Positions 26,457 through 63,770 of a stretch of 64,000 nucleotides of DNA are shown here, piece by piece. The notes under the pieces are model-generated. The model was not told the origin of the DNA. It was given only the letters and a program-made list of their open reading frames with translations, and ran no database searches. How positions within the stretch are numbered: the stretch's first letter is position 1; the number at the start of each line of letters is the position of its first letter. This stretch comes from Candidatus Multivoradales bacterium (GTDB taxonomy: Bacteria; Acidobacteriota; Thermoanaerobaculia; Multivoradales; Multivoraceae): assembly GCA_965223325.1 (NCBI GenBank), contig CBDCWI010000001.1, forward strand, positions 128,001 to 192,000, in the 5' to 3' direction. Both the position numbers and the translations under genes were made by a program.

Positions 26457-27938
26457 ATGAGCCGCAGCCAAGACCCCCTTCTCCCCCCGCTCGCCCTGAC
26501 CTTCGACGACGTCCTCTTGCGTCCCGGCATGTCCGAGATTCATCCGAACGACATCTCGCTCAAAACCCGCATCTGCCGCGGGATCGACCTCAACGTGCCT
26601 ATCGTCTCGGCAGCGATGGACACGGTGACGGAGTCGAGCCTGGCCATTGCCATCGCCCAGGAAGGCGGCATTGGCGTGGTCCACAAGAACCTCTCGGTCG
26701 CCGAACAGGCCGCGCAAGTAGACAAGGTCAAGCGCTCCGAGGCGGGCATGATCGTCGACCCGATCACCATGCGGCCCGACCAGAAGATCCAGGAAGCCCT
26801 CGATCTGATGGCGAACTACAAGATCTCGGGCCTACCTGTAACCGACGACGAGGGGCGCCTCGTCGGCATCCTTACCAACCGCGACCTACGCTTCGAAACC
26901 GAGGTCGACCGCCACGTGCGTGACCTGATGACCTCCGAGAACCTGGTCACGGTTCCAGAGGGCACCACCCTCGAAGAGGCCAAGGCCACCCTCCATCGCC
27001 ATCGCATCGAAAAACTGCTGGTGGTCGACGACGACGGCAACCTCCAGGGACTGATCACGGTCAAAGACATTCAGAAGATGCAGAAGTATCCGAGCGCTTG
27101 CAAAGACGCCCTCGGTCGCTTGCGGGTCGCAGCCGCGGTGGGCGCTTCCGGAGACTTCCTCGAACGCGCAGCGGCGCTGGTCGAGTCGAAGGTCGACATG
27201 TTGGTCCTCGATTCTTCGCACGCCCACAGCCGCGGTGTTCTCGACGCACTCGAAACCCTGCGCGAGGAGTTCCCCGCCGCCAAGCTGATGGTCGGCAACG
27301 TCTCGACCGGTGAGGGCGCCAGGGCGCTCGCGGAGCGTGGCGCAGACGCGGTCAAGGTAGGAATCGGCCCCGGCTCGATTTGCACGACCCGCATCGTGAC
27401 CGGAGCGGGCATGCCACAGATCACCGCCATCAACAGCGTGGCGCGTGAGCTCGAAGATGACAACATCCCCATCTGTGCCGACGGCGGCCTACGCTTTTCA
27501 GGCGATCTCACCAAGGCCCTGGCGGCCGGCGGTCACTCTGTGATGATCGGTTCTCTGCTCGCCGGTACCGAGGAGAGCCCGGGCGAGACCATTCTCTACC
27601 AGGGTCGCACCTACAAGGCCTACCGCGGCATGGGTTCGCTCTCGGCGATGAGCCGCGGCAGCGCCGACCGCTACTTCCAGGAGTCTGAGAACGGGCTCAG
27701 CAAGTTGGTTCCAGAAGGAATCGAAGGCATGGTGCCCTACAAGGGCAGCATGCACCAGATGATTCTCCAGCTCACCGGGGGCCTACGAGCCGGCATGGGA
27801 CTCTCCGGCTGCGCCAGCATCGACGACCTGCGCACCGCCTCCACCCTGGTCCGCGTGACCTCCGCAGGCCACAAAGAGGGCCACGCCCACGACGTCACGA
27901 TCACCAAAGAAGCTCCAAACTACTGGGTCGAGAGCTAG
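26457..27938 (+). CDS. guaB: IMP dehydrogenase
   Basis: [19 protein letters not shown] pair, [17 protein letters not shown] and VPEGIEG. Confidence 0.97.
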
Positions 27939-29337
27939 CGCGCCCCGTGGTGTCCGGCCCCTGGGTAGGCGGGCCTCGTTAGGTTGATCCGGGCTGCGGA
28001 GTCACGACCTTGCGGTGTCGACAAGTCGTTTACCACGGGGCGCGCTAGCCATCACATTGGCCGCTCAAGCGGTCCGCCGCGCGGGCCGCCCTCGAAAGCG
28101 CTCGCCCTGCACCCGCGATCCCAGACTGCGTTGATCCGTCGCGAGCGGCGGATTCGTGGCGTCAGCGCAACCCATTCCCGGAGACCGTGGTGTCCGGCCC
28201 CTGGGTAGGCGGGCCTCGTTAGGTTGATCCGGGCTGCGGAGTCACGACCTTGCGGTGTCGACAAGTCGTTTACCACGGGGCGCGCTAGCCATCACATTGG
28301 CCGCTCAAGCGGTCCGCCGCGCGGGCCGCCCTCGAAAGTGCTCGCCCTGCACCCGCGATCCCAGACTGCGTTGATCCGTCGCGAGCGGCGGATTCGTGGC
28401 GTCAGCGCAACCCATTCCCGGAGACCGTGGTGTCCGGCCCCTGTGTACGCGGGCCTCGTTAGGTTGATCCGGGCTGCGGAGTCACGACCTTGCGGTGTCG
28501 ACAAGTCGTTTACCACGGGGCGCGCTAGCCATCACATTGGCCGCTCAAGCGGTCCGCCGCGCGGGCCGCCCTCGAAAGCGCTCGCTCTGCACCCGCGATC
28601 CCAGACTGCGTTGATCCGTCGCGAGCGGCGGATTCGTGGCGTCAGCGCAACCCATTCCCGGAGACCGTGGTTTTCCGGCCCCTGGGTAGGCGGGCCTCGT
28701 TAGGTTGATCCGGGCTGCGGAGTCACGACCTTGCGGTGTCGACAAGTCGTTTACCACGGGGCGCGCTAGCCATCACATTGGCCGCTCAAGCGGTCCGCCG
28801 CGCGGGCCGCCCTCGAAACGGGGCGCGCTAGCCATCACATTGGCCGCTCAAGCGGTCCGCCGCGCGGGCCGCCCTCGAAAGCGCTCGCTCTGCACCCGCG
28901 ATCCCAGACTGCGTTGATCCGTCGCGAGCGGCGGATTCGTGGCGTCAGCGCAACCCATTCCCGGAGACAAGTCGTTTACCACGGGGCGCGCTAGCCATCA
29001 CATTGGCCGCTCCGCCGCGCGGGCCGCCCTCGAAAGCGCTCGTCTGCACCCGCGATCCCAGACTGCGTTGATCCGTCGCGAGCGGCGGATTCGTGGCGTC
29101 AGCGCAACCCATTCCCGGAGACCGTGGTGTCCGGCCCCTGTGTACGCGGGCCTCGTTAGGTTGATCCGGGCTGCGGAGTCACGACCTTGCGGTGTCGACA
29201 AGTCGTTTACCACGGGGCGCGCTAGCCATCACATTGGCCGCTCAAGCGGTCCGCCGCGCGGGCCGCCCTCGAAAGTGCTCGCCCTGCACCCGCGATCCCA
29301 GACTGCGTTGATCCGTCGCGAGCGGCGGATTCGTGGC
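27934..29337 (+). repeat. Tandem array of about six 240-bp GC-rich palindrome-rich units
   Basis: Unit starts CCGTGGT at 27945, 28185, 28425, 28665 and 29122, plus a 5'-truncated unit near 28966; copies near-identical; no variable spacers. Confidence 0.95.
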
Positions 29338-29455
29338 ACCCCGCCAAGACCCCGCCGACCTCCCCGGCCCCCCGCCCTCAACGAGAACCCCTGTCCGGCA
29401 GAAAGCCGCGTCCGTCGCCCAACGCGGATGGGCCGCTTCAATTGAGTAGCGCGGA

Positions 29456-29623
29456 GTGCACGAGGGCGCCTGGGCAACGGTCCAGGGCTCTCTCGACGGC
29501 CGCTCTGGTAGAGCTCTCGCAGTCGAGAACGACATGCGGCCATCGAGCGAAGGCGGCGCTACCCATGGCAGTCCGAACAAGCGCCGCCGTGCCCAGGACC
29601 GTCGCCCAAGCGTCCTCGTGCAC
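29456..29623. repeat. 168-bp element with 33-bp terminal inverted repeat and internal hairpins (MITE/REP-like or ncRNA)
   Basis: 29456-29488 vs 29591-29623 match as inverted repeats at 29/33 positions; several nested inner inverted repeats. Confidence 0.6.
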
Positions 29624-29762
29624 GTCAATCCCGCCCCAAACCAACCATCATCCACCAGGAGAACAAGAACCTGTACAACCGAGAAAGCGGCAAGGGTAGA
29701 GATCGAGTCCCCCCATCGCGGGCCGACCGATCCGCCGGATCCACACCATCGATCAGCGGCGG

Positions 29763-30386
29763 CTAAGAGTCGCCGTTCTGATGAACACCCCGCACCGCGG
29801 CCACAGTCTGGTCGGCGATCTTGGCGATCGGTGTGTCGAGCTCGAAGGCCTCGAGCCAGAGGTGGGCGCCGTCGGAGGCGCGCACAACCTCGACCAGCAG
29901 CTGCCAACGCTCCTCGCGCTCGAAGACCCGCCCGCTGACGACCGAGTCGGCGCCGAGCTCGCGATGTAGTCGCCGGAGTTCGCGGCTGCGGTCGCCTCCT
30001 GCGGTCACGCGGAACGAACGCGTGGCGGCCGGCCCGAGAACCAGAAGCCGCTGCTGTCCGGCCCGACCCGGCGCACCGAGGCGCGCCACCAGGGCACCGG
30101 CGAAGGAACTCACCTCGCTCTCCTCGAGTGCCTCCCGGAGGGCGAGCAGGTTCTCCTCTCCTCGACCTCCCTGCAAAGCGAACCCATCGAATGGCAGCAC
30201 CGCCACAGTCGGTGTCCGCCGCGGCTCAGGCAGCGGTGCCGCCTCCTCACGCGGGAGCTCCGGCTGCCCTCCTAGCCACAGCACAGTCCCGATCGTGAGG
30301 ACAGCCAGTGCCAGCGACGCCACCGACCAGGTCGCCAGCTGATAGCTACCGGCCGCGCGCCGGCGCCGTCGACTCGTCGTTGTCAC
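29763..30386 (-). CDS. Membrane-anchored protein with TolB-N-like domain
   Basis: TM helix, then VAVLPF, LGADSVVSGRV and VEVVRASDGAHLW; overlaps the peptidase stop by 4 nt. Confidence 0.6.
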   Translation of the reverse strand: MTTTSRRRRRAAGSYQLATWSVASLALAVLTIGTVLWLGGQPELPREEAAPLPEPRRTPTVAVLPFDGFALQGGRGEENLLALREALEESEVSSFAGALVARLGAPGRAGQQRLLVLGPAATRSFRVTAGGDRSRELRRLHRELGADSVVSGRVFEREERWQLLVEVVRASDGAHLWLEAFELDTPIAKIADQTVAAVRGVHQNGDS

Positions 30387-31675
30387 GACGACCGCTTGTA
30401 GGCCCGCGGATCCAGATCGTACGGCAGCGGCGTCAGGTTGCGCACGCCGTCTGCTTCAACCACCAGCAGATCCTCGAGTCGCACCCCGAAGCCGGCCTCG
30501 ACATCGTAGAGCCCAGGTTCGATTGTCACCACGTCACCTTGCTCGAGCGTGTGGTCCGGCGCATCGCCGCCGCGCGACGACCCCCGCAGAGCCGGAAGCT
30601 CATGAAGTTCGAAACCGACACCGTGGCCCAGCGTGTGCACATAGCCGGTTTCGGATCCGGGATCGGAACGCAGTGTCGGCCAACCGCGCTCCTCATAGAG
30701 GTCACAGGTTGCATCCTGCAGTTTCGCACCCGTTACCCCGGGGCGGGCAGCCCCGGTCGCACCTTCGAGAGCCGCCAGCGTGTCGCTCCAGGCACGCGCC
30801 AGTTCTCCTCCTGGCTCCCCGACACAGAAGGTGCGGGTACAGTCTGCGAACAGTCGGCCACGGGGAAAGAGATCGACCACCAGCCCCTCGCCCGTCACCA
30901 GCACACGCTCGTTGGTCCCGGCGTTGTGAGGCACTCCACCCTCCTCGCCCGGAGCCAGGATACTGCCCTCCGATTGGTCGAGCCCGGCGCTACCGAAACA
31001 CTCTGCGACGAGCCCGCGCAGATCGCCGACGCGTAACCGCTCGCCGCCGAGCCAGAGTTCAGCACCCCGACCCCGACTGGCCGGCTCGGCATCGGCCAGC
31101 GCACCGGCTATCGCACGAAAGGCCCGGCACACGACTCCTGCCACCCGCTCGATCTCGGCGATCTCGTGCGCCGACTTCACCTTGCGTACCCGCCGCATGA
31201 GGTCGTGTCCCGAAACCAGTCGATAGCCAGCGCTTTCCAGCTCGCGCGCCGCTTCGACCATGTTGCCCAGCGCCTCGTGCCCGGCGAGAGCGACCACACC
31301 GGGCTCGATCTCGCCATTGAGGAGCGCCTTGCCGAGCACCCACGCCAGAGCAGCGCCCGGGCCATCGCTCTCACGCTGCGCCTTGGCGACTTCGAGGCGC
31401 GCCGGGTCGATCACTTCGAGGCCGGTCGCTTCGGCCTCGCCCCGGTCGAGTGACGAGAAGAAGGCCAGGCGCGGGGCATCCCCGGGTCGCGCGACGACTG
31501 CTAACTGACCAATACGGACCTCGCCCAGAAACGGCGCGGCATCTGGATCACGCGCGTTGTGTCCCACCACCAGAAGCCCCGAGGCGCCAAGCGCCTCGAG
31601 CTCATGAGCCAGGCGATCTTGCCTCGCCTCTTCTCGCGGCGAGCTTCCGGCTCCCCGACCGCTCACCTCGCGCAA
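30383..31675 (-). CDS. M24 family (Xaa-Pro) peptidase
   Basis: RKVKSAHEI, VPH, VDLFP, ADCTRTF, HTLGHGVGFELHE, TIEPGLY and GVRLED. Confidence 0.92.
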   Translation of the reverse strand: MREVSGRGAGSSPREEARQDRLAHELEALGASGLLVVGHNARDPDAAPFLGEVRIGQLAVVARPGDAPRLAFFSSLDRGEAEATGLEVIDPARLEVAKAQRESDGPGAALAWVLGKALLNGEIEPGVVALAGHEALGNMVEAARELESAGYRLVSGHDLMRRVRKVKSAHEIAEIERVAGVVCRAFRAIAGALADAEPASRGRGAELWLGGERLRVGDLRGLVAECFGSAGLDQSEGSILAPGEEGGVPHNAGTNERVLVTGEGLVVDLFPRGRLFADCTRTFCVGEPGGELARAWSDTLAALEGATGAARPGVTGAKLQDATCDLYEERGWPTLRSDPGSETGYVHTLGHGVGFELHELPALRGSSRGGDAPDHTLEQGDVVTIEPGLYDVEAGFGVRLEDLLVVEADGVRNLTPLPYDLDPRAYKRSS

Positions 31676-31683
31676 CCGGTCAT

Positions 31684-32037
31684 TCAGGTCACAGCATTCT
31701 GGGCAGACTGCAGACCCTCGGCGACAAAGTTCTCGATCTGCGGACGTGGCAGGGCGCCCATGGTGCGTGCGGCGACCTCACCGTTCTTGAACAGGATCAG
31801 GGTGGGAATGCTCTGTACGCCGTACTGGGCTGCGGTTTCACGTGCGGCATCGACATCGACCTTGACGATCTTGAGGTTTCCGGCATGATCACCCGCCATC
31901 TCCTCGAGAACCGGCGCGATCTGGCGACAGGGGCCGCACCACGTCGCCCAGAAGTCGACCAGGACAGGTTGCTCGGACTGGACGACTTCGCTCTCGAAGT
32001 TGTCGTTGTTGACATCGATGATGTTTTCGCTGGCCAT
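31684..32037 (-). CDS. trxA: Thioredoxin
   Basis: VDFWATWCGPC and SIPTL. Confidence 0.95.
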   Translation of the reverse strand: MASENIIDVNNDNFESEVVQSEQPVLVDFWATWCGPCRQIAPVLEEMAGDHAGNLKIVKVDVDAARETAAQYGVQSIPTLILFKNGEVAARTMGALPRPQIENFVAEGLQSAQNAVT

Positions 32038-32126
32038 CGAGTGGGCCTCCGTAGTCTCCGCCGTGGCGGGTTGGGTTGAACTGTTGAAAGGTCAGGTTTG
32101 CCGCGCAGCTCGTCGGGTGACTCTAT

Positions 32127-32186
32127 CGTCGGGATCTGGCGTCGGGATCTGGCGTCGGGATCTGGCGCCGGGATCTGGCGCCGGGA
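32127..32186. repeat. 13-bp tandem repeat (GGGATCTGGCGYC) x4 just after the ribF stop
   Basis: Units at 32131, 32144, 32157 and 32170, partial unit at 32183. Confidence 0.85.
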
Positions 32187-32189
32187 GGT

Positions 32190-33152
32190 TCAGTGACTGG
32201 GCAGTTCTTCCAAACGCGGTATCCCGCGCAGAAATTCCCGAGCGATTTCGACGTCCTTCCCGATCTGAGCCGACAGATCCATGGTGGAGCTGAACATCTT
32301 CTCGTCGCGCAGCCGCTTCCAGAAACGGACCTCGACTGCCTCTCCGTATACGTCGCTCTGGAAATCGAGGATGTGACTTTCGCAAACGCGCTGAAAATTC
32401 TCGTAGACCGTGGGCCTGGTTCCGATATTGGTCACCGCATCGAAGACCGCGGGGAACGACGGAAAGAAAACCCTGGTGGCATACACCCCGTCGAGCGGCA
32501 GGAAGTCGCTATCAGGCGCCAGGTTGATGGTTGGCCAACCGAGTTTCTGGCCCATGCGATCACCACGGGCAACCAACCCGGTGACTGAATAGGGTCGGCC
32601 CAGGAGCTCGTGCGCTTCGTAGACCTTCCCCTCCGCCAGCAGCCGGCGAATGCGAGTGCTCGAGACCCGTTCGACGCCGCGGCGCACCTCGTCGACGGTG
32701 AACGCCTCGAAGCCGAAGCTCTTGCCCATCTGCTGGAGCAGGGAAACGTCGCCCTCACGCCGATGGCCGAAGCTGAAGTCGGAACCGACATAGACCTCTT
32801 TGACCTCGAGTCGTTCGTGCAAGAAGTCGCGCACGAACGAGCGCGCGGGGGTCTGGGCGAACTCGGGCGTGAACTGCACGACCAGAACGGCGTCAATACC
32901 GGTTGCGTCGAGCAATGCATCGCGCTGCGAAGGCGTAGCAAGGCGCGCCGGCGCGGCCTCGGGCCGCAGGACCGAAAGGGGGTGCGGGTCGAAAGTAATC
33001 ACCGCAGAAGGACAGTCGAGATCGCGAGCGCGCGCCACGACCAGCTCGAGGACCGCGCGCTGGCCGAGATGAATGCCGTCATAGTTCCCGATCGTGACCA
33101 CCGCACCTTGCGGAAGGTCGGTGGCTGAGAGTGCATCTTGAATGACTTGCAT
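32190..33152 (-). CDS. ribF: Bifunctional riboflavin kinase/FAD synthetase
   Basis: GNYDGIHLGQ, TFDPHP, VSSTRIR, LGWPTIN, NIGTRPT and ESHILDF. Confidence 0.95.
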   Translation of the reverse strand: MQVIQDALSATDLPQGAVVTIGNYDGIHLGQRAVLELVVARARDLDCPSAVITFDPHPLSVLRPEAAPARLATPSQRDALLDATGIDAVLVVQFTPEFAQTPARSFVRDFLHERLEVKEVYVGSDFSFGHRREGDVSLLQQMGKSFGFEAFTVDEVRRGVERVSSTRIRRLLAEGKVYEAHELLGRPYSVTGLVARGDRMGQKLGWPTINLAPDSDFLPLDGVYATRVFFPSFPAVFDAVTNIGTRPTVYENFQRVCESHILDFQSDVYGEAVEVRFWKRLRDEKMFSSTMDLSAQIGKDVEIAREFLRGIPRLEELPSH

Positions 33153-33157
33153 GGCGA

Positions 33158-34681
33158 TTAGACGGTCAGCTCCCGAGAAGCGGGACTCGGATCGTGCCCG
33201 GCAGCCATCTCGCTCGCCGTCACGACGTCCGGCCGACCGCGCGGCCCAACGATACGCCCGACCAGGTCATCGGCATGGGCCTCGGTCACCTCGACCTCGA
33301 CCAGGCTCGGCGCCGCCGCACAGCCGTCGACGATCAGCACCCGACCATCGATGCCGGGCGCCATCCCTTGATGCCGGGCTTCGAGAAGCAGATCACTCTC
33401 GGAACTCTGACCCTCGAGTAGCATCTCGAGAGTCTTACCGACCAGGCGCTGGCGGCGTTCGAGCGAAATCGGCCGTTGCACTTCGAGCAGATGCTGGAGA
33501 CGGCGTTCCGCCTCTTCGCCATCCACCGCAGCCTCGAACGTGGCCGCAGGGGTGTCCTCTTCGGGACTGAAGGCAAACGCTCCCAGGTGATCGAAGCGCG
33601 CTCTACAGATGAACTCTTCGAGATGTCTGAGGTGTTCGAGGGTCTCCCCCGGGAAACCGACGATGAACGTCGTGCGCAAGAAGACATCTGGCACAAGCTG
33701 CCGCGTGCGTTCGAGAAGGCGCAGGTAGCGCGCCGCGCTCCCTCCGCGCCGCATGCTGGTGAGCATCTCGGGATGGCTGTGTTGGAGGGGCATATCGAGG
33801 TACGAGACGAAGCGCTCTTCGCCACCCATGAGAGCAAGAAGCTCCTCGTCCAAGGTCGTTGGGTAGGCGTACATGAAACGGATCCAGGGGATCGTAGTCT
33901 CCGCCAACAGCGCCTCGACGAGACGCACCAGGCCGTAGCGACCGAGGCCGAGATCCTCTCCGTAGCGCGTCGTATCCTGCGCCAGCAACACGATCTCGCT
34001 AAAACCCTCGGCCTCGAGCCGCTTCGCCTCGGCAACAAGGCTCTTGATCGTGCGACTGCGAAAGCGGCCTCGCCAGACAGGGATGGCGCAGAACGTACAC
34101 GGGTTGTTGCACCCCTCTGCGACCTTCAGGTAGGCGAAACCGCGGGTGGTGACCAGGCGCGGCGCGGTGTGATCGAAGACGCGCTCCGCCCGGTGCGGGG
34201 CAAGCGGCAGGCTACTGCCAAGGCGCACCAGCCCAGAGACATCCTGCAGCTGGTCAAGGCCGATGAAACCATCGATCTCCGGAATCTCGGCGGCGAGCTC
34301 CTCGGCGTAGCGACTCGCCATGCAGCCCGACACCAAAAGGCGCTTCGGACCTCCGGCCTCGGTCTTTTGCTCGGCCACCTCGAGAATCGCCTCGATGGAC
34401 TCCTCGCGGGCCTCCCCGATGAAACCGCATGTGTTAACGATCACCACCTCGGCCTCGTGCACGTCGATCACGACATCGTGGCCCTGCCCTTCAAGTTCTC
34501 CGAGCATGATCTCGGCGTCTACGAGGTTCTTGGGACAACCCAGGCTGATCATTCCGACCCGCGGGGGCTTGCCCGTGTGATCAGGCGACAGCGCCGCCAC
34601 ACCGGGCTTTGGAAGCACAGAGGAACCCTGCGGCCGGGGCGCGAAGGCTCGCCGCTCTTGCCCTGAAACACCCTTGGACAT
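33158..34681 (-). CDS. rimO: Ribosomal protein S12 methylthiotransferase
   Basis: SLGCPKNLVD, NTCGFI, AEGCNNPCTFCAIP and APGIDG TRAM region. Confidence 0.93.
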   Translation of the reverse strand: MSKGVSGQERRAFAPRPQGSSVLPKPGVAALSPDHTGKPPRVGMISLGCPKNLVDAEIMLGELEGQGHDVVIDVHEAEVVIVNTCGFIGEAREESIEAILEVAEQKTEAGGPKRLLVSGCMASRYAEELAAEIPEIDGFIGLDQLQDVSGLVRLGSSLPLAPHRAERVFDHTAPRLVTTRGFAYLKVAEGCNNPCTFCAIPVWRGRFRSRTIKSLVAEAKRLEAEGFSEIVLLAQDTTRYGEDLGLGRYGLVRLVEALLAETTIPWIRFMYAYPTTLDEELLALMGGEERFVSYLDMPLQHSHPEMLTSMRRGGSAARYLRLLERTRQLVPDVFLRTTFIVGFPGETLEHLRHLEEFICRARFDHLGAFAFSPEEDTPAATFEAAVDGEEAERRLQHLLEVQRPISLERRQRLVGKTLEMLLEGQSSESDLLLEARHQGMAPGIDGRVLIVDGCAAAPSLVEVEVTEAHADDLVGRIVGPRGRPDVVTASEMAAGHDPSPASRELTV

Positions 34682-34755
34682 TGGGCGAATCGTAGCAGCA
34701 GAGGCCCTCGGCACACCGACTCCACCCCTGAACCGGCAATGAATTCCGAGAAAAC

Positions 34756-34784
34756 TTGAATTTATCGCCATTCATCGATATACT
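34756..34784 (+). promoter_or_regulatory. Putative sigma70 promoter for the PilZ-like gene
   Basis: TTGAAT-N17-TATACT in an AT-rich patch. Confidence 0.5.
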
Positions 34785-34850
34785 GGTTTCGCACTGTTGC
34801 CAGGGTACATCGCAACCCCAACAGCAGCCTCCCGATCACGGATCCTGGTC

Positions 34851-35561
34851 ATGCCGAAACCACCACCATTCTCGACAGAAATCCCCATCGACCGCTCACC
34901 AACCGTCGAGGACCCCGGCCTCTCCGGAGACCTGGCCTTCGTCACTCTGGCGGCGGTTGTCGATGTCGGACTCGGCGGTCTCGGACTGCAAACTGAAGAG
35001 GCCCTCCGCGTCGGCCACTCCTACACCGTCGACCTCGAGTCGTCCAACCTCGAGCTGACCGGCAAAACGGTATGGAACCGTCAGGTCGGTACCTTCCGCC
35101 AGAACAACGGTCGCATCGTGCCCCGCTACCGGGCCGGTCTGGCGTTCGAGAGCGAAACCATCACGGCCCACCAGGAAGCGTTGCAGGAGTACCTGATTCT
35201 CAACGCCGTCTCCGAAACCGCCTCGCGACGCCCCTCACCGCGCTACCACCTGCGCTCGGACACTCCGCGGGTACTCCACACCCGCTACCCGTTCACGGTC
35301 GACTCGATCAGTGTGTCCGGAATGATCGTCAAGGTCGACCAGCTCCCCACCCCCGATGCAGTCCTTCACCTGCGTCTCGGCCTCTCCGACAGCGAACAGC
35401 TCGACCTCACCGCCCGCCTCAGCGACGTCTACCAGACCTACGACAACGACAGGATCGACACCCGTGTCGCCCTCGAGTTCGTCAACCTCTACGCCGGCAC
35501 CCGCGAAACCCTGGGTAACTGGGTCCGCGAACGACGTTCACTCACCCCCCTCATCCAGTAG
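34851..35561 (+). CDS. Tandem PilZ-like domain protein
   Basis: DVGLGGL...AGLAF first domain; RRPSPRY...SISVSGM...ALEF second domain; start uncertain. Confidence 0.7.
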   Translation: MPKPPPFSTEIPIDRSPTVEDPGLSGDLAFVTLAAVVDVGLGGLGLQTEEALRVGHSYTVDLESSNLELTGKTVWNRQVGTFRQNNGRIVPRYRAGLAFESETITAHQEALQEYLILNAVSETASRRPSPRYHLRSDTPRVLHTRYPFTVDSISVSGMIVKVDQLPTPDAVLHLRLGLSDSEQLDLTARLSDVYQTYDNDRIDTRVALEFVNLYAGTRETLGNWVRERRSLTPLIQ

Positions 35562-35890
35562 CTCCAGCAACCGAACCACACCCACCCTCCCGGCCAAAGG
35601 CCCCGCTGCCGCGTTTCCTCTTTCCCGACAGCAACCCGACCGAACAGCTCACCCGCACCACCGCGCGGCCAAGATGATCTGAGATCTGAGATCTGAGGCG
35701 TGGAACACCACCCCACGAAAGTTCAACGGCGCGACTCCCAGTACCGCTCTACAGAAAAAGGAAGCGCGTGCCTGCGGCCACCACGCCTCAGATCAACACT
35801 CCGGAGGCGCACGACAAGCGAACCGAAGTCCTCCGCCGCACCTGCAGGGCCACCCACCAACCGCCAACGGCAACCGCAACGGACCGCTTG

Positions 35891-37800
35891 GATACGCCGG
35901 GATAAACCGGCATGGAGAAAGGAATGAGAGAGTCCCACCCTCGAAGGGGTAGCGACCCAGAGGGTCCCCGAGTCATGCGCCGGCTCCCGCGAGGGTGCGG
36001 TGAAGCGTTGACAGGGGCACACACAGGCCGGGTATTGAGCCGCGAAATAAGAATTTGGGAGTGCCGACGCTGTCAAGCGAAGCGGAAGGCGAGACTCCGT
36101 AGCGCGCTATCGCGAGCTCTGCGGCGACTCCCCGCGGTCGTAGACCCTGTGCATGTGTGGAATCTCCATGCGCGAGAACCGGGAGATCCGCGATCTGGCC
36201 AGTTGGGTATCTGGTCCGCATCGGGAAGGCTAGAGGCCGTAAGCCGATGACGCACGGATGGCGGAAGTCAGACAGGCCCGTAGTACCTGCGAAGTCGTCG
36301 AACAACGGTGGGAGACCAGCGGCGGAGGCGGTGGAGGGAAGGGGCCTGGCCAAGGGGAACACGGGCAAGCAAAACGCACCCCGGACACAGAGCCGGATGG
36401 AGAGTGCGAGCAATGCGCTGGGCCGTGTACGAGAAGCCGCCCGCAGGGGCAAGGAAGTGAAGTTCACAGCGCTTCTTCACCACATCACGGTCGAGCGACT
36501 CCGGAGCGCATTTGACGTGTTGCACCGAGACGCAGCGGCAGGAGTGGACGGAGTGTCATGGAGCGAGTACGCAGAATCTTTGCTGAGCAATCTCGAGGAC
36601 CTGCACTCTCGTGTCCACCGTGGGAGCTACCGGGCGAGTGCGACTCGTCGCGTCTACATCGAGAAATCGGATGGGCGGTTCCGACCGCTTGGCATCGCCA
36701 CGTTGGAGGACAAGATCCTTCAGCGCGCCGTCGTCTCGGTGTTGGATGCGATCTACGAGGAAGACTTTCTCGGGTACTCATACGGATTCAGGCGAGGCCG
36801 CAGCCAGCACGATGCTTTGGATGCGCTATTCGTTGGAATCACAAAGCGGAAGGTGAACTGGGTGCTCGACGCAGACATTCGTGGGTTCTTCGATGCCCTG
36901 GACCACGAGTGGCTGGTGAAGTTTCTCGAGCACCGTATCGGAGACCGTAGGATCCTTCGCCTCATCCAGAAATGGCTGAGGTCCGGAGTGATGGAAGACG
37001 GTAAGTGGCACGCGAGCACGCGGGGGACTCCTCAGGGGGCGACGATTTCGCCTCTCCTCGGGAACGTGTACCTGCACTACGTGCTCGATCTCTGGGTCCA
37101 GCAGTGGAGGAAACGCAACGCGCTTGGGGACATGATCTTCGTGCGCTACGCGGATGACTTCATCGTTGGATTTGAGAGGCAGGAGGAGGCAGAACGATTC
37201 CTCGAGGAACTGAACCTGCGACTCCGTGACTTCTCGTTGGAGATCCAACCCGAGAAGACGCGCCTGCTGGAGTTTGGCCGCTTTGCGGCCTACAACCGAC
37301 GCGCGCGAGGTCTCGGGCGGCCGGAGACCTTCGAGTTTCTAGGCTTTACGCACTGCTGTGCGCAGTCTAGTCGAGGGAGGTTCTTGCTGAAGCGCATCAC
37401 GAGCCGCCACCGAATCCGCAGGACACTGAAGGCTGTCGGTACGGCCCTTCTGGGACACCGACACTCGCCGCTACCAGAGCAAGGTCTCTGGCTGGGATCC
37501 GTGGTGCGAGGCTTCAATGCCTACTACGGCGTACCCGGCAACTCAGCGGCGTTGAACGCCTTTCGACAGGAGGTCATTCGGCACTGGATGCGCGCTCTGC
37601 GCCGACGCAGTGACAAAGACCGCACGTCCTGGAAACGGATGTGGGCCCTGGTGGCCCACTACCTACCCAAAGCCCGAGTCCAACATCCCTGGCCTGATGA
37701 GCGACTTGTCGTCAATACCTGAGGCAGGAGCCCAGTGCATTAGCAGTGCACGCTGGGATCTGTGCGGGGGGCGCCGGGCAACCGGCGCTCCTACCGCGAT
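35891..37800 (+). mobile_element. Group II intron (probably bacterial class E), 1910 nt
   Basis: Removal restores the repeat GGACCGCTTG|CGCCGGACC exactly with no target duplication; D5 GGAGCCCAGTGC...GCACGCTGGGATCT and D6 ending CTACCGCGAT; EBS1-like loop CAAGCG at 36074-36079; class assignment from recalled motifs. Confidence 0.92.
36247..37722 (+). CDS. ltrA: Group II intron reverse transcriptase/maturase without endonuclease domain
   Basis: FTALLHH, RRVYIEK, RPLGI, SYGFR, DADIRGFFD, GTPQG, RYADD and FEFLGF; ends after domain X; start uncertain. Confidence 0.93.
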   Translation: MTHGWRKSDRPVVPAKSSNNGGRPAAEAVEGRGLAKGNTGKQNAPRTQSRMESASNALGRVREAARRGKEVKFTALLHHITVERLRSAFDVLHRDAAAGVDGVSWSEYAESLLSNLEDLHSRVHRGSYRASATRRVYIEKSDGRFRPLGIATLEDKILQRAVVSVLDAIYEEDFLGYSYGFRRGRSQHDALDALFVGITKRKVNWVLDADIRGFFDALDHEWLVKFLEHRIGDRRILRLIQKWLRSGVMEDGKWHASTRGTPQGATISPLLGNVYLHYVLDLWVQQWRKRNALGDMIFVRYADDFIVGFERQEEAERFLEELNLRLRDFSLEIQPEKTRLLEFGRFAAYNRRARGLGRPETFEFLGFTHCCAQSSRGRFLLKRITSRHRIRRTLKAVGTALLGHRHSPLPEQGLWLGSVVRGFNAYYGVPGNSAALNAFRQEVIRHWMRALRRRSDKDRTSWKRMWALVAHYLPKARVQHPWPDERLVVNT

Positions 37801-38364
37801 CGCCGGACCAGGATGATCGTGATCTGAGGCGTGGTACACGACCCAGCGAAAGCTCAACGGCGCCACTCCCAGTACCGCTCTACAAGAAAAGGAAGCGCGT
37901 GCCTGCGGCCACCACGCTTCAGATCAACACTCCGGAGGCGCGCGACAAGCGAACCGAAGTCCTCCGCCGCACCTGCAGGGCCACCCACCAACCGCCAACG
38001 GCAACCGCAACGGACCGCTTGCGCCGGACCAGGATGATCGTGATCTGAGGCGTGGTACACGACCCAGCGAAAGCTCAACGGCGCGACTCCCAGTACCGCT
38101 CTACAAGAAAAGGAAGCGCGTGCCTGCGGCCACCACGCTTCAGATCAACACTCCGGAGGCGCGCGACAAGCGAACCGAAGTCCTCCGCCGCACCTGCAGG
38201 GCCACCCACCAACCGCCAACGGCAACCGCAACGGACCGCTTGCGCCGGACCAGGATGATCGTGATCTGAGGCGTGGTACACGACCCCACGAAAGTCAACG
38301 GCGCCACTCCCAGTACCGCTCTACAAGAAAAGGAAGCGCGTGCCTGCGGCCACCACGCCTCAGA

Positions 38365-39675
38365 TCACGGATAGATCTTGTAGAGCATCCGGGGGTAGGG
38401 AATCGTTTCGCGGAGATGGGGAACACCACTCATCCAGGCGACGAACCGTTCGAGGCCCATGCCGAAGCCACTGTGCGGAAAGCTTCCGTACTTGCGCACA
38501 TCGAGGTACCACTGGAAGGCCTCGATCGGGAGTTCGTGTTCGTGAATTCGTTCGAGCAACAGGTCGTGGTCGTGGATGCGCTGGCTGCCGCCGATGATCT
38601 CACCGTAGCCCTCGGGGGCAAGAACATCGAGCGCCAGCGCGGTCTCGGGGCGTTCGCCGTCGGGCTGCATATAGAAGGCTTTGGTTTTCGCCGGGTAGTG
38701 AGTGATCATCACCGGCCGATCGAAACGTGAGGCGAGCAGCGTTTCGTCTTCGGCCCCGAAGTCGTCGCCCCACTCGAGCGACTTGCCCGCTTCAGCAAGC
38801 ACCGCGACCGCCTCGTCGTAGGTCATGCGCGGAAACGGCCCGGCCACTGCCTCGAGCTTGGCAATGTCCCGATCGAGAACGTCGAGCGGGCCTCGGCAGC
38901 GCTCTAGAACCCTACCGACGACCGAGACCAGGAAGTCCTCGGCAAGCTCACAGAGGCCATCGAACTCGAGAAAGGCGACCTCAGGCTCCACCATCCAGAA
39001 TTCAGTGAGATGGCGGCGCGTCTTCGATTTCTCGGCGCGAAAGGTCGGGCCGAAGCAGTAGACCTTGCCGAGTGCAGCGGCTGCAGGCTCCAGGTACAGC
39101 TGGCCCGACTGGCTCAAAAACGCAGGATCGCCAAAGTAGTCGGTCTCGAACAACGTCGAGGTACCTTCGCAGGCAGCCGGCGTCAGAATCGGCGAGTCGA
39201 TGAGGCTGAAGCCACGATCGTAGAAGAAGTCACGGATGGCGTGCACCGCTTCACTCCGAATCTGGAGGACCGCACGCTGTTTACTCGATCGCAACCAGAG
39301 GTGGCGATTGGCCATCAAGAACGCCGTGCCGTGTTCCTTCGGCGTGATCGGGTACTCGTCGGCCAGCGACACGACCCCGATCGAGTGCGCCTTCAGCTCG
39401 ACGCCCGTTGGCGAGCGCTTGTCGGCCGCAACCTCGCCGATGCAACGGATCGTCGACTCCTGGGTGGCCTCTTCCAGAGCGTTCCATGTCTCTTCACTGA
39501 CGTCGCCGCGACTCACCACGACCTGGACGACTTCACTCCCGTCGCGGAGCTGGATGAAACCGATCTTGCCGCTCGAACGTTTGTTGGCGATCCAGCCGGA
39601 AAGTTCGACTGTCTCGCCCACCAACTCGGGCAGGTCACGGACCCATACGCGTTCTGTCTTTTCCTCTCCACTCAT
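38365..39675 (-). CDS. asnS: Asparagine--tRNA ligase
   Basis: LRDGS OB fold, [32 protein letters not shown] and [10 protein letters not shown]. Confidence 0.95.
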
Positions 39676-60231: not shown

Positions 60232-62082
60232 CTAGCCGCCGCCGCGCGCGACGCCGGAGCCGATTCGCAAGGTCCGCGACACGAACGATGTCACTCCGGC
60301 AAGCTCGTCGCGCACCCCCACTGAGAGCTTCTGATCACCCGGCGCCATCCGCAGCGGCAAGGTCCAGGTGTAGAAGAGCTTCTGGGCACGCTCGAGATCG
60401 TCGGCCGGGATCGGAAACTCAATGCGCTCCTGAGAGACCGGCGAGAGATCTCCATTGCTGTCTTGAGCCTGCACCCAGGCGCGCAGTCTGGCCTCGTGCA
60501 CTTCGCCCAGGGGATACAGGGTGACCTTCCCGATCGGGATACGCACGTCGACGTGCACGACGTAGGTGCCATTGGCGCTGGGAATCGATTCCTTGGGCAC
60601 CAGCTGGATGCCCAGGTCGTTCTTCTGGAAGCCAAAGCGCAGACCAGCGAGGGTGCTGTCTGCCATTTCGACCTCGATCGGCTTGTCGCGATAGTTGTCC
60701 TTACAGCGCACCCGCACCCGTTTCATCTTGACCTTGCACTGGATGTTGTAGGTGCGGCCACTCCCTGCGTGCGAGGGCTGGAAACCGAGCGAGTAGTAGT
60801 TGCCGAAGTCGTTGGCGATCTTCTCGAAGCCACCACTGAAGTTGTTGGTGTTGGTGATCGCCTGACCACCGGTCTCGTCGGCCATGTAGTGCAGGGTGCT
60901 CTGCATGTTGCTGGTGGCGATCGAGTCGATATTGGTCGAAAACTCGGTGTACCCGGTTTCGGCGCCACGCAGGCTCGAGCTCCGCAGGCCAGCAGCGTCG
61001 ATGGTGTAGAAGGCCACGTTGTTGGCGTTGGCTGCGCGGGTCAGCTCCCGGAACCGGCGGCTCAGGTCGTACTGCAGTGAATCGAGAACGTTGACGCCCT
61101 GGCCGCCCGTGATGCTGGTGTCACCGCGCAGCTTCTCATCGGCGGCGTGGAACATCTCCTCGGCGGCGCGCATCGGCAACCCGTCGCTCACGTAGAGCAT
61201 CGCCTTGCGACCTGGAATGCCACCCAGGTCGTTGACCATGCTGCGCATGCCGTCGAGGGTGAACTGCATGTCGTTGTAGACGTTCTCTGCAAACATGCGC
61301 ACCCGCCCCATGACCAGGCCCTCTGAGCGCGCTTCCTCGAGATCGCGCAAGAGATCACGGCGCTCGGAGTCGTACTGCGAACGCCCCCCGGTGTGGGTCT
61401 CGATCTCATGCAGAGCGCGGGTGATCACGGCGTGGTCGCTGGTGAAGGTGCGCACGATCTTGGGGTCGCCGCGGTTGTAGGTCACCAGCATCACACGATC
61501 GGAGCGTTGCACGTTGCTGCGCAGAAACTCGCGTAGGAAGCGGAATACACGGTTGCGGTTGAAAGGCCGGATGTTGAAGTGGTCGACGTAGATCACCAGG
61601 TGCAACCGCTGATCTGCCGGCACATCGTCGAACCCGCCCCGCCGGGCGATGTCTGGGTGCGAGGAGAGGACGTCGCCACTCGACGCGCCCGGTTCGACCT
61701 TCTCACCATCCTCGTTGAAGCGATCACCGTCGCGCACCTCGTAGAAGTTGGTGATCGTTACCGGTCGGCGGTCTTCGATGAGCTCGAAGTCGTCGATTGA
61801 CAGCCCAGTGATCGGCTCACCTGTCTTCTTGTCGGTGACATAAACCGGAATGTTGACCACCTTGACGCGGATCTCCTCACCAAAGGTCGCACGCGGCACA
61901 TCGGAGGAGGCTGGTGCGGTGGTGGTCTGAGAACCGGCCGCCTCTTCCGTCGTCGTCGACTCGGAGCTTGATTCCTGAGCGATCAGTGTTCCGGCGTTAG
62001 CGAGGAGCGCCAGGAGGAGGACGGAGGCTCGGGCCGCGAGCGACGATGAGGTCTTCGTGGTTCCTACGGACAGTCTTTTCAC
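60232..62082 (-). CDS. Secreted VWA-domain protein (Acidobacterial VWFA-related type)
   Basis: Signal peptide; VVNIPVYVTDK, GLSIDDFEL, GRKAMLYVSDG, ADETGG and YYSLGF. Confidence 0.85.
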   Translation of the reverse strand: MKRLSVGTTKTSSSLAARASVLLLALLANAGTLIAQESSSESTTTEEAAGSQTTTAPASSDVPRATFGEEIRVKVVNIPVYVTDKKTGEPITGLSIDDFELIEDRRPVTITNFYEVRDGDRFNEDGEKVEPGASSGDVLSSHPDIARRGGFDDVPADQRLHLVIYVDHFNIRPFNRNRVFRFLREFLRSNVQRSDRVMLVTYNRGDPKIVRTFTSDHAVITRALHEIETHTGGRSQYDSERRDLLRDLEEARSEGLVMGRVRMFAENVYNDMQFTLDGMRSMVNDLGGIPGRKAMLYVSDGLPMRAAEEMFHAADEKLRGDTSITGGQGVNVLDSLQYDLSRRFRELTRAANANNVAFYTIDAAGLRSSSLRGAETGYTEFSTNIDSIATSNMQSTLHYMADETGGQAITNTNNFSGGFEKIANDFGNYYSLGFQPSHAGSGRTYNIQCKVKMKRVRVRCKDNYRDKPIEVEMADSTLAGLRFGFQKNDLGIQLVPKESIPSANGTYVVHVDVRIPIGKVTLYPLGEVHEARLRAWVQAQDSNGDLSPVSQERIEFPIPADDLERAQKLFYTWTLPLRMAPGDQKLSVGVRDELAGVTSFVSRTLRIGSGVARGGG

Positions 62083-63770
62083 TCTGGAGTCACCTCGAGG
62101 GCGGTGGACAGGAGTGCGCCTCCCGCCAGGTCATAAACGGCCACCACGACATCGTGCGGCTTCCTTCTCATCAAGAGCCGCGTCGCCCAGCGGTAGTAGC
62201 TGCCCCCCGCGGGACGGTCAGGCATCTCGAACGACAACGGGATCACAGGTATTTCCTCGCCCGTTGCACCATCCGCGTCGAGCACTGCCACGCGCAGCTC
62301 GAGGTTGGCAGTCCAGCTGGGCTTCGCGGGGTTTGTGCCACTCGGGAGCAACACCAGAGCGTCGAGCGGAATCGCCATGGCCAGCGGCACGATCATTTTG
62401 CGGCGACCCTTGGTTTCCGGCCGCCCGACCTGCACCAGGAGGGGGACTTCCGATGGTGGCGTCCCGAAATGGAGAGCACTCTCGACCGCCGTGGTGACCT
62501 GGGTCTGGCGCGAGAAGTCGGCATAGTTCTCGCGCGCTCTCGCCCGGTAGCCCTTGGTCTTCATGACCACTTTGACGTCATGGCGACTGTCGTCGCCCTG
62601 CCAGGTGGGAGTGAAGCCGAGCCAGTAGAAGGAACGGGTGTCGGCGACCACCGCTTCGAAAGCCGTGCGGCCACGACCGTCGAGCAGGGCGCGACCGCCG
62701 GTCTCGTCGGAGATGAACTGCAGGCTCTGGTGAACGCCGGTCTCGCGCAGGAAACCGTCCGTTGCGGCACCGGTGCGCTCGAAGTCGGCTCCGATCAGAC
62801 CGGTGAACTGAACACCAGCAACGTCGACCGCGTAGACCGTGTAGCCGAGCAGGTTGGCGGTATCGACAATCGCTCCGTAGAGCTCTTCGCCGCGATCGAT
62901 CTCGGCTTCGACGACCGGCCGCGAAATGTCGTTGACGATGAACTCGACCGGATCCCACGGCCAACCGCCGGCGAGCAGGACAAAAACCTTGCGTCCCGGT
63001 GGGTTGGCGAACCCGCGCAGGGTTGCCGCGGCAGCAGCCGAGACCCGCTCGAGCTGGTCTTCGAGACGTTCGACGTAGGCGCGTTCTTCGAGACTCAGGT
63101 TGGTCTGGATGTCGCTCCCCAGAGGGCCATCGGTGTCCGGCAGGATGCTGCGCGCCTGGCGCAACTCTGCGGCGCGCTGAAGGCCCGACGAACGCCGGTC
63201 GCGGGCCTCGCGCAGCGCCTTTTCGAGGTCGCGCTCCGACTGGGTCCAGCTGGTGAGCATGGTGAGCTCGGACCCGTCGTAGGCCACGATTGCCATGCGG
63301 TCTTCGGGACCGAGCTGTGCCGTCTGCAGGGCGAGCTGATCGAGCACCCGCCGGCGGTCAACGTTCTCGGAGAACAACTCATCGATGAACACCAGGTAGC
63401 TGGTGCCAACCCGGCCGCCGGGGCCGACCGCCGGGACCTCGGCGATGGCACTCCCGGTGCTCTCTTCGGCGACGTTCTGCGCGCGACCCCCGTTGATCTC
63501 GCTGAAATACTGAATGTCGACTGGCTCGCCGTCGATCTGGAGCTCGAAGTCTTCGGGCCCGAGGCCGGTGATGATTTCGCCGCGCCGGTCGGTGACCACC
63601 ACCTCGACATTGACCACCCGCACATCGACGGTCTCGCCGAAATGCGCGACCGGGGCGCTCTCCTCGGAAGTCCTGTTTTCGGAAGACTGTCCGAGCGAGG
63701 GGCCAACCGCCGCCAGCAAGAAGACGAGCGCCGCAGCGGCTTGCTGTCGCGCGCCCGATGAATGAAGCAT
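62079..63770 (-). CDS. Secreted VWA-domain protein, paralog of the neighbouring gene
   Basis: Signal peptide; VVNVEVVVTDR, GLGPEDFEL, GRK, DETGG and YWLGF. Confidence 0.85.
   Translation of the reverse strand: MLHSSGARQQAAAALVFLLAAVGPSLGQSSENRTSEESAPVAHFGETVDVRVVNVEVVVTDRRGEIITGLGPEDFELQIDGEPVDIQYFSEINGGRAQNVAEESTGSAIAEVPAVGPGGRVGTSYLVFIDELFSENVDRRRVLDQLALQTAQLGPEDRMAIVAYDGSELTMLTSWTQSERDLEKALREARDRRSSGLQRAAELRQARSILPDTDGPLGSDIQTNLSLEERAYVERLEDQLERVSAAAAATLRGFANPPGRKVFVLLAGGWPWDPVEFIVNDISRPVVEAEIDRGEELYGAIVDTANLLGYTVYAVDVAGVQFTGLIGADFERTGAATDGFLRETGVHQSLQFISDETGGRALLDGRGRTAFEAVVADTRSFYWLGFTPTWQGDDSRHDVKVVMKTKGYRARARENYADFSRQTQVTTAVESALHFGTPPSEVPLLVQVGRPETKGRRKMIVPLAMAIPLDALVLLPSGTNPAKPSWTANLELRVAVLDADGATGEEIPVIPLSFEMPDRPAGGSYYRWATRLLMRRKPHDVVVAVYDLAGGALLSTALEVTPE

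Follow-up and report, generated by a model that had tools for sequence, protein, structure and literature searches.

The window analysed here is a stretch of 64,000 nucleotides from Candidatus Multivoradales bacterium (contig CBDCWI010000001.1, positions 128,001 to 192,000 of the forward strand), housekeeping DNA with a G+C content of 65%. Within it, guaB and asnS are each followed by a tandem array that starts at the stop codon and lies in a convergent intergenic gap: array 1, built of a 240-bp unit, behind guaB, and array 2, built of a 221-bp unit, behind asnS (Table 1). An earlier reading of the letters, hereafter the original prediction, had taken the two arrays for divergent members of one repeat family, and its placement of them at the two stop codons agrees with the coordinates of the open reading frames (ORFs). 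We find that the two unit types are homologous and that they make up a real two-locus non-coding repeat family. The first copy of each array opens with a hairpin module whose perfect 18-bp stem includes the stop codon of the gene, in the same register at both loci.

Table 1 Features of the two arrays, their host genes and the intron within array 2 (H, hairpin module; c, copy).
Feature	Position	Strand	Remarks
guaB (IMP dehydrogenase)	26457..27938	+	Pfam IMPDH 501 bits plus CBS
Array 1	27934..29337	+	240-bp unit, six copies; TRF, blastn, per-copy table
Array 1, first H	27934..28049	+	perfect 18-nt arms 27934-27951 and 28032-28049, 80 nt enclosed (inverted repeat I6)
Array 1, c1	27946-28185	+	full copy
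Array 1, c2	28186-28425	+	full copy
Array 1, c3	28426-28665	+	full copy
Array 1, c4	28666-28968	+	62-nt internal duplication
Array 1, c5	28969-29122	+	without first 77 nt
Array 1, c6	29123-29337	+	without last 25 nt
Array 2, distal part	35627..35890	-	1.7 further copies; blastn 98.9% and 92.5%, nhmmer
Array 2, c4	35785 to ~35627	-	degenerate partial copy
Array 2, c4 hairpin arms	35794-35781 and 35703-35690	-	14 nt, perfect; fold z -4.0
Array 2, c3, last 105 nt	35890-35786	-	98.9% identical
Group II intron	35891..37800	+	1910 nt, exactly inside array-2 c3
Intron ribozyme, domains D1-D4	35929-36147	+	Rfam RF02005 180.6 bits, full model
Intron reverse transcriptase/maturase ORF	36157-37722	+	TIGR04416 342 bits (cut-off 300); Pfam RVT_1
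Array 2, gene-proximal part	37801..38369	-	221-bp unit; TRF, blastn, per-copy table
Array 2, c3, first 116 nt	37916-37801	-	
Array 2, c2	38137-37917	-	
Array 2, c1	38357-38138	-	
Array 2, first H	38260..38369	-	perfect 18-nt arms 38369-38352 and 38277-38260, 74 nt enclosed (inverted repeat I7)
asnS (asparagine-tRNA ligase)	38365..39675	-	Pfam tRNA-synt_2; matches PDB AsnRS 5zg8, 1x54

The homology of the units was supported by several measures. All eight motifs that the original prediction had listed were found in both unit types with their order kept (positions in the array-1/array-2 unit 1/1, 49/45, 80/75, 106/100, 121/117, 159/157, 193/192 and 233/203). The claimed similarity between the units also exceeded that of shuffled sequence: a global alignment contained 146 identities in 255 columns (57%), with z-scores of 4.6–5.9, and under four scoring schemes 0, 1, 0 and 0 of 1000 dinucleotide shuffles matched its score. 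This score was highest at rotation 0 of 221 and lower for the reverse complement. Collinear chains of shared words reached 18 for 6-mers (shuffle mean 9.3; reached by 1 of 500 shuffles) and 11 for 7-mers (mean 4.2; 2 of 500), while at k = 8 the observed chain was reached by 10 of 500. In nhmmer searches of the window, a profile made from array 1 only had array 2 as its top non-self match (E 0.006), and a profile made from array 2 only matched all five full array-1 copies (E 0.008–0.009); significant profile similarity was confined to unit positions ~58–149. Both unit types contain RGTCRYG twice, 27 nt apart. The pattern CGTGGT-N60–90-ACCACG occurs nine times in the window against 0.07 expected, and eight of the nine lie within the arrays. 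We took the ninth (62056–62148, minus strand, beginning CGTGGTGGCCG like array 2) as chance; its arms are not extended, and it falls in coding sequence where two minus-strand genes meet.

Each unit follows the same plan, a hairpin module H of ~110 nt (110–116 nt) and then a linker module L of ~110–125 nt. H has a core stem, CGTGGT...ACCACG, and in the first copy of either array this stem is lengthened by outer arms that are specific to the array. Later array-2 copies have outer arms that are imperfect or shorter, and internal array-1 copies have no 5′ outer arm. The guaB stop TAG (27936–27938) and the asnS stop TGA (38367–38365) both occupy arm positions 3–5, and the register is alike at the two genes: the arm starts at −2 of the stop, and the stop is followed by 7 nt and then by CGTGGT. 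The anchoring at gene 3′ ends that had been proposed is thus borne out by an identical geometry at both genes. Of the 12 outer positions of the arm, only 2 agree between the arrays, and yet all 18 pairs match in either stem. Among the 42 inverted-repeat pairs reported for the window, no other is a perfect repeat of 18 nt. We also scanned the stops of 66 ORFs (67 crude ORFs were called, one of them too near the window end), and those of guaB and asnS were the only two that lay under a perfect inverted repeat of at least 8 nt, the next best reaching 7 nt. By inspection, without an empty site to compare, no direct repeat flanks the hairpins or the arrays. We infer that the perfect, locus-specific stems were kept up or formed anew as the remainder of the unit diverged to 57% identity, which would matter only for the gene-proximal copy.

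RNA folding set the same copies apart. The first H of array 1 folds at −68.1 kcal/mol (z −4.5) and the first H of array 2 at z −4.7, and in both cases 0 of 200 shuffles did as well. The last H of array 2 reaches z −4.0, an internal H of array 2 z −2.0, and an internal H of array 1, which is without the outer 5′ arm, z −0.1. The stem appears tied to the gene end, because only the gene-proximal copies, and the last copy of array 2, out-fold their shuffles. What had been predicted as a structured-RNA family is in this respect narrower, since only the closing stem of H in these copies beats shuffles (z −4.0 to −4.7).

Both host genes are intact. The native C-terminus of AsnS, ...MLYKIYP, aligns with the ...ARLYP end of the P. 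horikoshii enzyme (1x54), and the array follows directly. At guaB, the last codon and the stop lie within the 5′ arm of the first array-1 hairpin, the terminal Ser codon (27933–27938 with the stop) overlapping the first two arm bases. GuaB ends in ...NYWVES; the last position is R or K in 118 of 119 relatives, and the terminal S is also found in 1 of the 119 (a distant one, P0056, where no element is known). These sequences give a faint hint that the hairpin arm may have overwritten the end of guaB.

Within each array the copies are near-identical, as had been claimed: full copies differ by 0–4 substitutions in the per-copy table. Tandem Repeats Finder (TRF) placed the 240-bp array at 27945–29337 with 5.9 copies and the 221-bp array at 37801–38367 with 2.6 copies. 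Some array-1 substitutions are shared in a mosaic fashion, two being common to copies 3 and 6, one to copies 1, 3, 4 and 5, and another to copies 3, 4 and 5. These mosaic substitutions, the internal duplication and the deletions are what unequal recombination and gene conversion would produce. Together with the degenerate distal copy of array 2, they agree with the local amplification and homogenisation that had been proposed. The originally predicted extent, 27934..38369, takes in both arrays, but array 2 is longer than had been recognised, by the 1.7 copies at 35627–35890. An end of array 2 exactly at the position of the intron was considered and rejected, the profile alignment continuing to ~35627. 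At this distal end, TCAGATC (7 nt, part of the 3′ hairpin arm on the minus strand) stands three times in tandem at ~35676–35700. A CRISPR array was likewise rejected; the units abut without spacers, and no cas domain was found in the window ORFs scanned (47, against Pfam).

The arrays have the composition of non-coding DNA. In their ORFs the G+C content at the three codon positions is flat, ~0.65/0.65/0.68, against ~0.67/0.44/0.78 in real genes, and the offsets between motifs differ between the unit types by non-multiples of 3. Coding potential was rejected on the flat profile and on finding no Pfam match, and on this basis we regard the arrays as non-coding. Neither sigma-70-like promoters nor intrinsic-terminator-like sites were found within the repeat units, which fits read-through from the upstream gene. 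Five terminator-like sites were found in 27500–39000, four of them in the intron (two at 35926–35942) and one in miaB. The hairpins were also rejected as intrinsic terminators: no site with a GC-rich stem, a short loop and a U-tract is present in the units, and the arms, which begin GCTAGC... and CGTGAT..., are followed by CATCAC and GATCAT.

Copy 3 of array 2 is split by a group II intron, which the original prediction overlooked when it reported no transposase, cas gene or integrase nearby. The report itself stands for the 47 scanned ORFs, in which we found no transposase, integrase, cas, RAYT or Y1-transposase domain; the reverse transcriptase (RT) of the intron is the sole mobile-element gene among them. 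The insertion is clean, because the two halves of copy 3 sum exactly to 116 + 105 = 221 nt. Its plasmid-borne relatives have RTs that are 55–58% identical. RF00029, the model of domains 5 and 6 (D5/D6), gave no match at E up to 1; by eye, the 3′ end of the intron aligns with the D5/D6 region in its relatives, and RF00029 does match one of these. The 5′ end reads GATACG, where the B. cenocepacia relative has GTGCG, the P. putida relative GAGCG and the group II consensus GUGYG. Both relatives end in ...CCTACCGCGAC and the intron of the window in ...CCTACCGCGAT, its final ...CGCGAT fitting AY. A 5′-truncated intron was rejected, since alignment to the two plasmid relatives shows full length.

The intron probably did not give rise to the repeats. 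The loop of its exon-binding site 1 (EBS1), CAAGCG (36074–36079), pairs over 6 bp with the intron-binding site 1 (IBS1), CGCTTG, that ends the 5′ exon (35885–35890), and the pair covaries, being TAAGCG/CGCTTA in the P. putida relative. CGCTTG complements a CAAGCG motif common to both units. The position of the intron is explained by its own target rule, because of this 6-bp match, and the intron looks like a later arrival and not the source of the repeats. The five full array-1 copies also carry the CGCTTG target on the minus strand, yet they are without an intron. Introns of class IIC choose stem-loops (PMC1702495). Such attraction to a stem-loop was considered for this intron and rejected, the upstream DNA folding no better than its shuffles. 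On pBCJ2315 of B. cenocepacia (L002 603–621), the related intron is immediately preceded by a perfect ACTGTA-N6-TACAGT palindrome and stands between imuA and the gene of an SOS-response peptidase; the palindrome, we presume, resembles an SOS box.

We looked for further members of the family in several collections. What had been called a dispersed element rests on two loci 6–8 kb apart; the 64-kb window holds no third copy, the next match of the joint profile having E 4.9, and none came from the other searches. The family had gone unrecognised in the original prediction, and comparison with Rfam likewise gave no family at gathering score in the arrays, matches at E up to 10 being weak, snoRNA- or miRNA-like and far below gathering. 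With blastn, both units matched nothing among plasmids and phages except two 36-nt stretches of Martelella (E 9e-3), which we took as chance. An exact-pattern scan (hairpin 3′ arm plus the CAAGCGGTCC motif) of one genome for each of 185,579 species returned 1 locus only, against 7 matches of the pattern in the window; the test is a narrow one, as a single base change in the motifs escapes it. That locus, in an Actinosynnema contig, lies within a 159-bp protein-coding repeat and was put down to chance. In protein space, the plus-strand ORF of array 1 had no match and its minus-strand ORF gave no candidate. The array-2 ORF had eight matches among 1.84 billion representatives, all of them long tandem-repeat proteins scored over 3–16 repeated stretches; these, too, we attribute to chance (best single alignment 30.8 bits, to a protein under a tick name, Rhipicephalus). 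Among the titles and abstracts listed in a literature search, none gives an account of such an element, which is no proof that it is unpublished. The best non-self relatives of GuaB are 75–83% identical, and those with names are from Thermoanaerobaculia or Acidobacteriota; the organism therefore has no close relative among ~15 billion proteins, and every comparative test is limited for that reason.

How might such an element work? We tentatively favour, at somewhat less than an even chance, a lineage-specific non-coding 3′-end hairpin element that has been locally amplified and homogenised and is probably co-transcribed as a structure of the mRNA 3′ end. The element would be transcribed within the guaB and asnS mRNAs, as we assume. 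With the last ribosome gone from the stop codon, the 18-bp stem would close over it, and the closed stem would either block 3′-to-5′ exonucleases or offer a defined site to a double-strand-specific RNase; in this way the hairpin would set the 3′ end and the stability of the mRNA. Unequal recombination or replication slippage would have produced the downstream copies as a side effect; these would be tolerated in long convergent gaps and kept alike by concerted evolution. The group II intron would have entered one copy later, by way of the 6-nt match of the unit to EBS1. There are precedents for the parts of this scheme. Correia elements are bound by RNase III and are cleaved or protected (PMC2649163), and for REPs a part in termination and in the stabilisation of mRNA has been proposed (PMC3733652).

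A number of points weigh against this reading. Transcription of the arrays is an assumption, and with two loci the common geometry may be a coincidence, a chance that by our own estimate is small although not negligible. The stems could owe their perfection to recent templated palindrome correction, a known mutational process, and not to selection. In internal array-2 copies the single stem substitution makes an A–C mismatch on the asnS-sense strand and a G–U pair on the opposite one. Whole units only marginally beat their shuffles (z −1.5 to −2.7), and the L modules fold no better than theirs (z +0.4 and +1.1). A conserved structure of interior or linker was rejected, no interior fold being common to the two unit types when they were compared with MAFFT plus RNAalifold, in which the 5′ arms were misaligned. 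The interior of 74–80 nt itself differs from that of simple protective hairpins. Finally, the original prediction had described conserved motifs separated by differing sequence, a contrast that was not confirmed: tests for clustering of the identities into blocks fell short of significance (P 0.19 for the longest run, 0.12 for the number of runs of at least 6 and 0.08 for the bases in such runs). The 'conserved motifs' fit a uniform 57% identity and therefore give by themselves no sign of selection, so that only the stem shows constraint.

The main rival, which we consider unlikely, is a non-autonomous mobile element of the foldback type, or like a miniature inverted-repeat transposable element (MITE), that inserts at or beside stop codons, serves no host function and forms arrays by slippage. 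It would either supply an in-frame stop of its own within the terminal arm or copy its target in inverted orientation. Such an element would account for an identical insertion geometry at two unrelated genes, and loci 6–8 kb apart would fit local hopping, although no third copy was found within 64 kb and no target-site duplication is visible by inspection. Its terminal inverted repeats would be perfect over 18 nt, yet they share 2 of the outer 12 nt between loci, unlike ends that a transposase recognises, and the homology runs past them into L (positions 58–149), so that the inverted repeats do not bound the element. The final S of GuaB, at a position occupied by R or K in 118 of 119 relatives, looks as if the arm had supplied the last two bases of the codon; the relative P0056, however, likewise ends in S with no known element. 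The 47 scanned ORFs also hold no transposase, integrase or RAYT. More doubtful still is a bolder reading, an undescribed class of element anchored at stop codons, in which the conserved core lands or is recruited 7 nt past the stop, acquires a perfect, locus-specific 18-bp clamp that covers the stop from 2 nt within the last codon onwards, and seeds an array; the clamp would come about by compensatory evolution or by a templated copy of the gene end in inverted orientation.

Three further possibilities were weighed. Each unit could be the gene of an independent structured non-coding RNA, the arrays being tandem RNA genes that yield unit-length RNAs, which would suit the near-constant motif spacing between unit types (up to 193/192) and the strong stability of the first-copy hairpins. 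We judge this very improbable: Rfam gave no match to the units that reached gathering at E up to 10, no unit has a promoter-like or terminator-like site, neither internal array-1 copies nor L modules out-fold their shuffles, no interior structure is conserved between the types, and the identities are unclustered. A role at the level of DNA, as a binding-site or cruciform array for a DNA-binding protein in nucleoid organisation, recombination or a replication barrier, appears a shade less probable again. Short motifs common to both units at fixed spacing, among them the paired RGTCRYG 27 nt apart, and the perfect inverted repeats would speak for it, but statistically the motif blocks cannot be told from a uniform 57% identity, no candidate gene for a binding protein is adjacent, and such a role leaves unexplained that only the copy next to the gene has its stem over the stop codon. 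We give least credence to the absence of any family, that is, to two unrelated tandem repeats in GC-rich spacers that are alike by chance. The nhmmer E-values are only 0.006–0.009, the k-mer chains were reached by 1–10 of 500 shuffles and the searches made found no third member; even so, four independent measures agree (alignment z 4.6–5.9 at rotation 0, reciprocal best matches, the collinear chain, and the stop-codon geometry with its common core), and nine occurrences of CGTGGT-N60–90-ACCACG stand against 0.07 expected.

Several known systems resemble the arrays in part. Like the Correia elements of Neisseria (CREE/NEMIS), whose hairpin RNase III binds and then cleaves or protects (PMC2649163), they are non-coding and intergenic, have inverted-repeat ends around a core and lie beside genes with which they are co-transcribed, the last being assumed for the arrays. 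The arrays differ in being tandem, in their unit length of 221–240 bp, in outer arms that are not conserved (2 of 12), in homology that extends past the inverted repeat, and in having two known loci. Correia elements measure ~100–155 bp, have terminal repeats that are conserved, and are scattered singly in many copies. Repetitive extragenic palindromes (REPs) and the BIMEs they form likewise lie outside genes, at the 3′ termini of transcription units, and REPs are 20–40 bp long, carry GTAG or CGTC tags, number hundreds of copies and are linked to RAYTs (PMC3733652 for position and tags). In contrast, H here is 110–116 nt with an interior of 74–80 nt, neither tag stands at an arm end, and the scanned ORFs of the window include no RAYT. 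In BIME clusters, palindromic units and linker motifs alternate in tandem, and translation termination is affected by REPs that lie no more than ~15 nt from a stop codon. From a MITE the element differs in that the 18-nt inverted repeats enclose only H, and in that only the inner CGTGGT/ACCACG is common to the two loci.

Head-to-tail intergenic arrays beside stop codons also recall the mycobacterial MIRUs and other variable-number tandem repeats. MIRUs are ~40–100 bp long, lie inside operons, overlap stop and start codons and change copy number via slippage or unequal recombination, whereas the units here are 221–240 bp, lie between convergent genes and contain a large hairpin. With head-to-tail copies of high within-array identity, the arrays are tandem repeats in the sense of minisatellites. 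Pneumococcal BOX elements offer a further likeness, as transcribed intergenic repeats of modular build in which one module can be tandemly repeated (PMC3049150; transcription of the arrays is assumed). The arrays show no sequence similarity to BOX, which is without stop-codon anchoring. BOX modules are 45–59 bp long and occur in more than 100 dispersed copies. Integron attC sites were rejected: the 3′ arm ends have no GTTRRRY, the hosts are guaB and asnS, and there is no integrase, although no attC model was run. The arrays are probably a new family of a general kind that is already known, their unusual feature being the stop-codon register.

What the family means depends on whether this geometry is a rule. 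If it is, it would be a bacterial 3′-end element placed to single-nucleotide precision relative to the stop codon, and would give a handle on the links between translation termination, mRNA 3′-end structure and the spread of repeats in a barely studied phylum. A positional rule that held genome-wide would imply a mobile element that takes its distance from stop codons, or else a new kind of 3′-end structure coupled to translation termination. If the geometry is a coincidence, the arrays are one more lineage-specific intergenic repeat. For annotation, knowing the family avoids false ORF calls in gaps of 1.4–2.7 kb, flags a hotspot of assembly error and marks an intron target.

The genes around the arrays are in the order secA and guaB (both +), array 1, a strongly folding hairpin, a hypothetical gene (29763–30386, −), a gene for an M24 peptidase, a thioredoxin-like gene, ribF and miaB (all −), a PilZ-domain gene (+), array 2, and then asnS, rnc and mutL (all −). 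The hairpin between array 1 and the convergent hypothetical gene is a very stable palindrome at 29449–29634, with 33-nt arms that are 88% complementary and 102 nt between them. Its RNA fold has z −8.3 on the plus strand and −9.1 on the minus strand (0 of 200 shuffles doing as well), it has no Rfam match at E up to 10, and it is unlike the array units. A second, unrelated tandem repeat that starts at a stop codon lies between ribF and the thioredoxin-like gene (WCGPC motif): the 13-nt CGTCGGGATCTGG is present in 4.6 copies with 97% matches at 32127–32186, 4 nt past the ribF stop on the minus strand. A tRNA scan of the window gave 0 genes. GC skew is negative in 28 of 32 2-kb bins of the window (1–64000) without a switch; being of one sign, it places the whole window on one replichore, with a C-rich plus strand. 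Two tracts of the plus strand are C-rich and G-poor, one at 29338–29448 just past array 1 (C 46%, G 24%) and one at 35562–35675 just past the stop of the PilZ gene (C 49%, G 18%), and both have, in composition only, what would be expected of Rho-loading sites.

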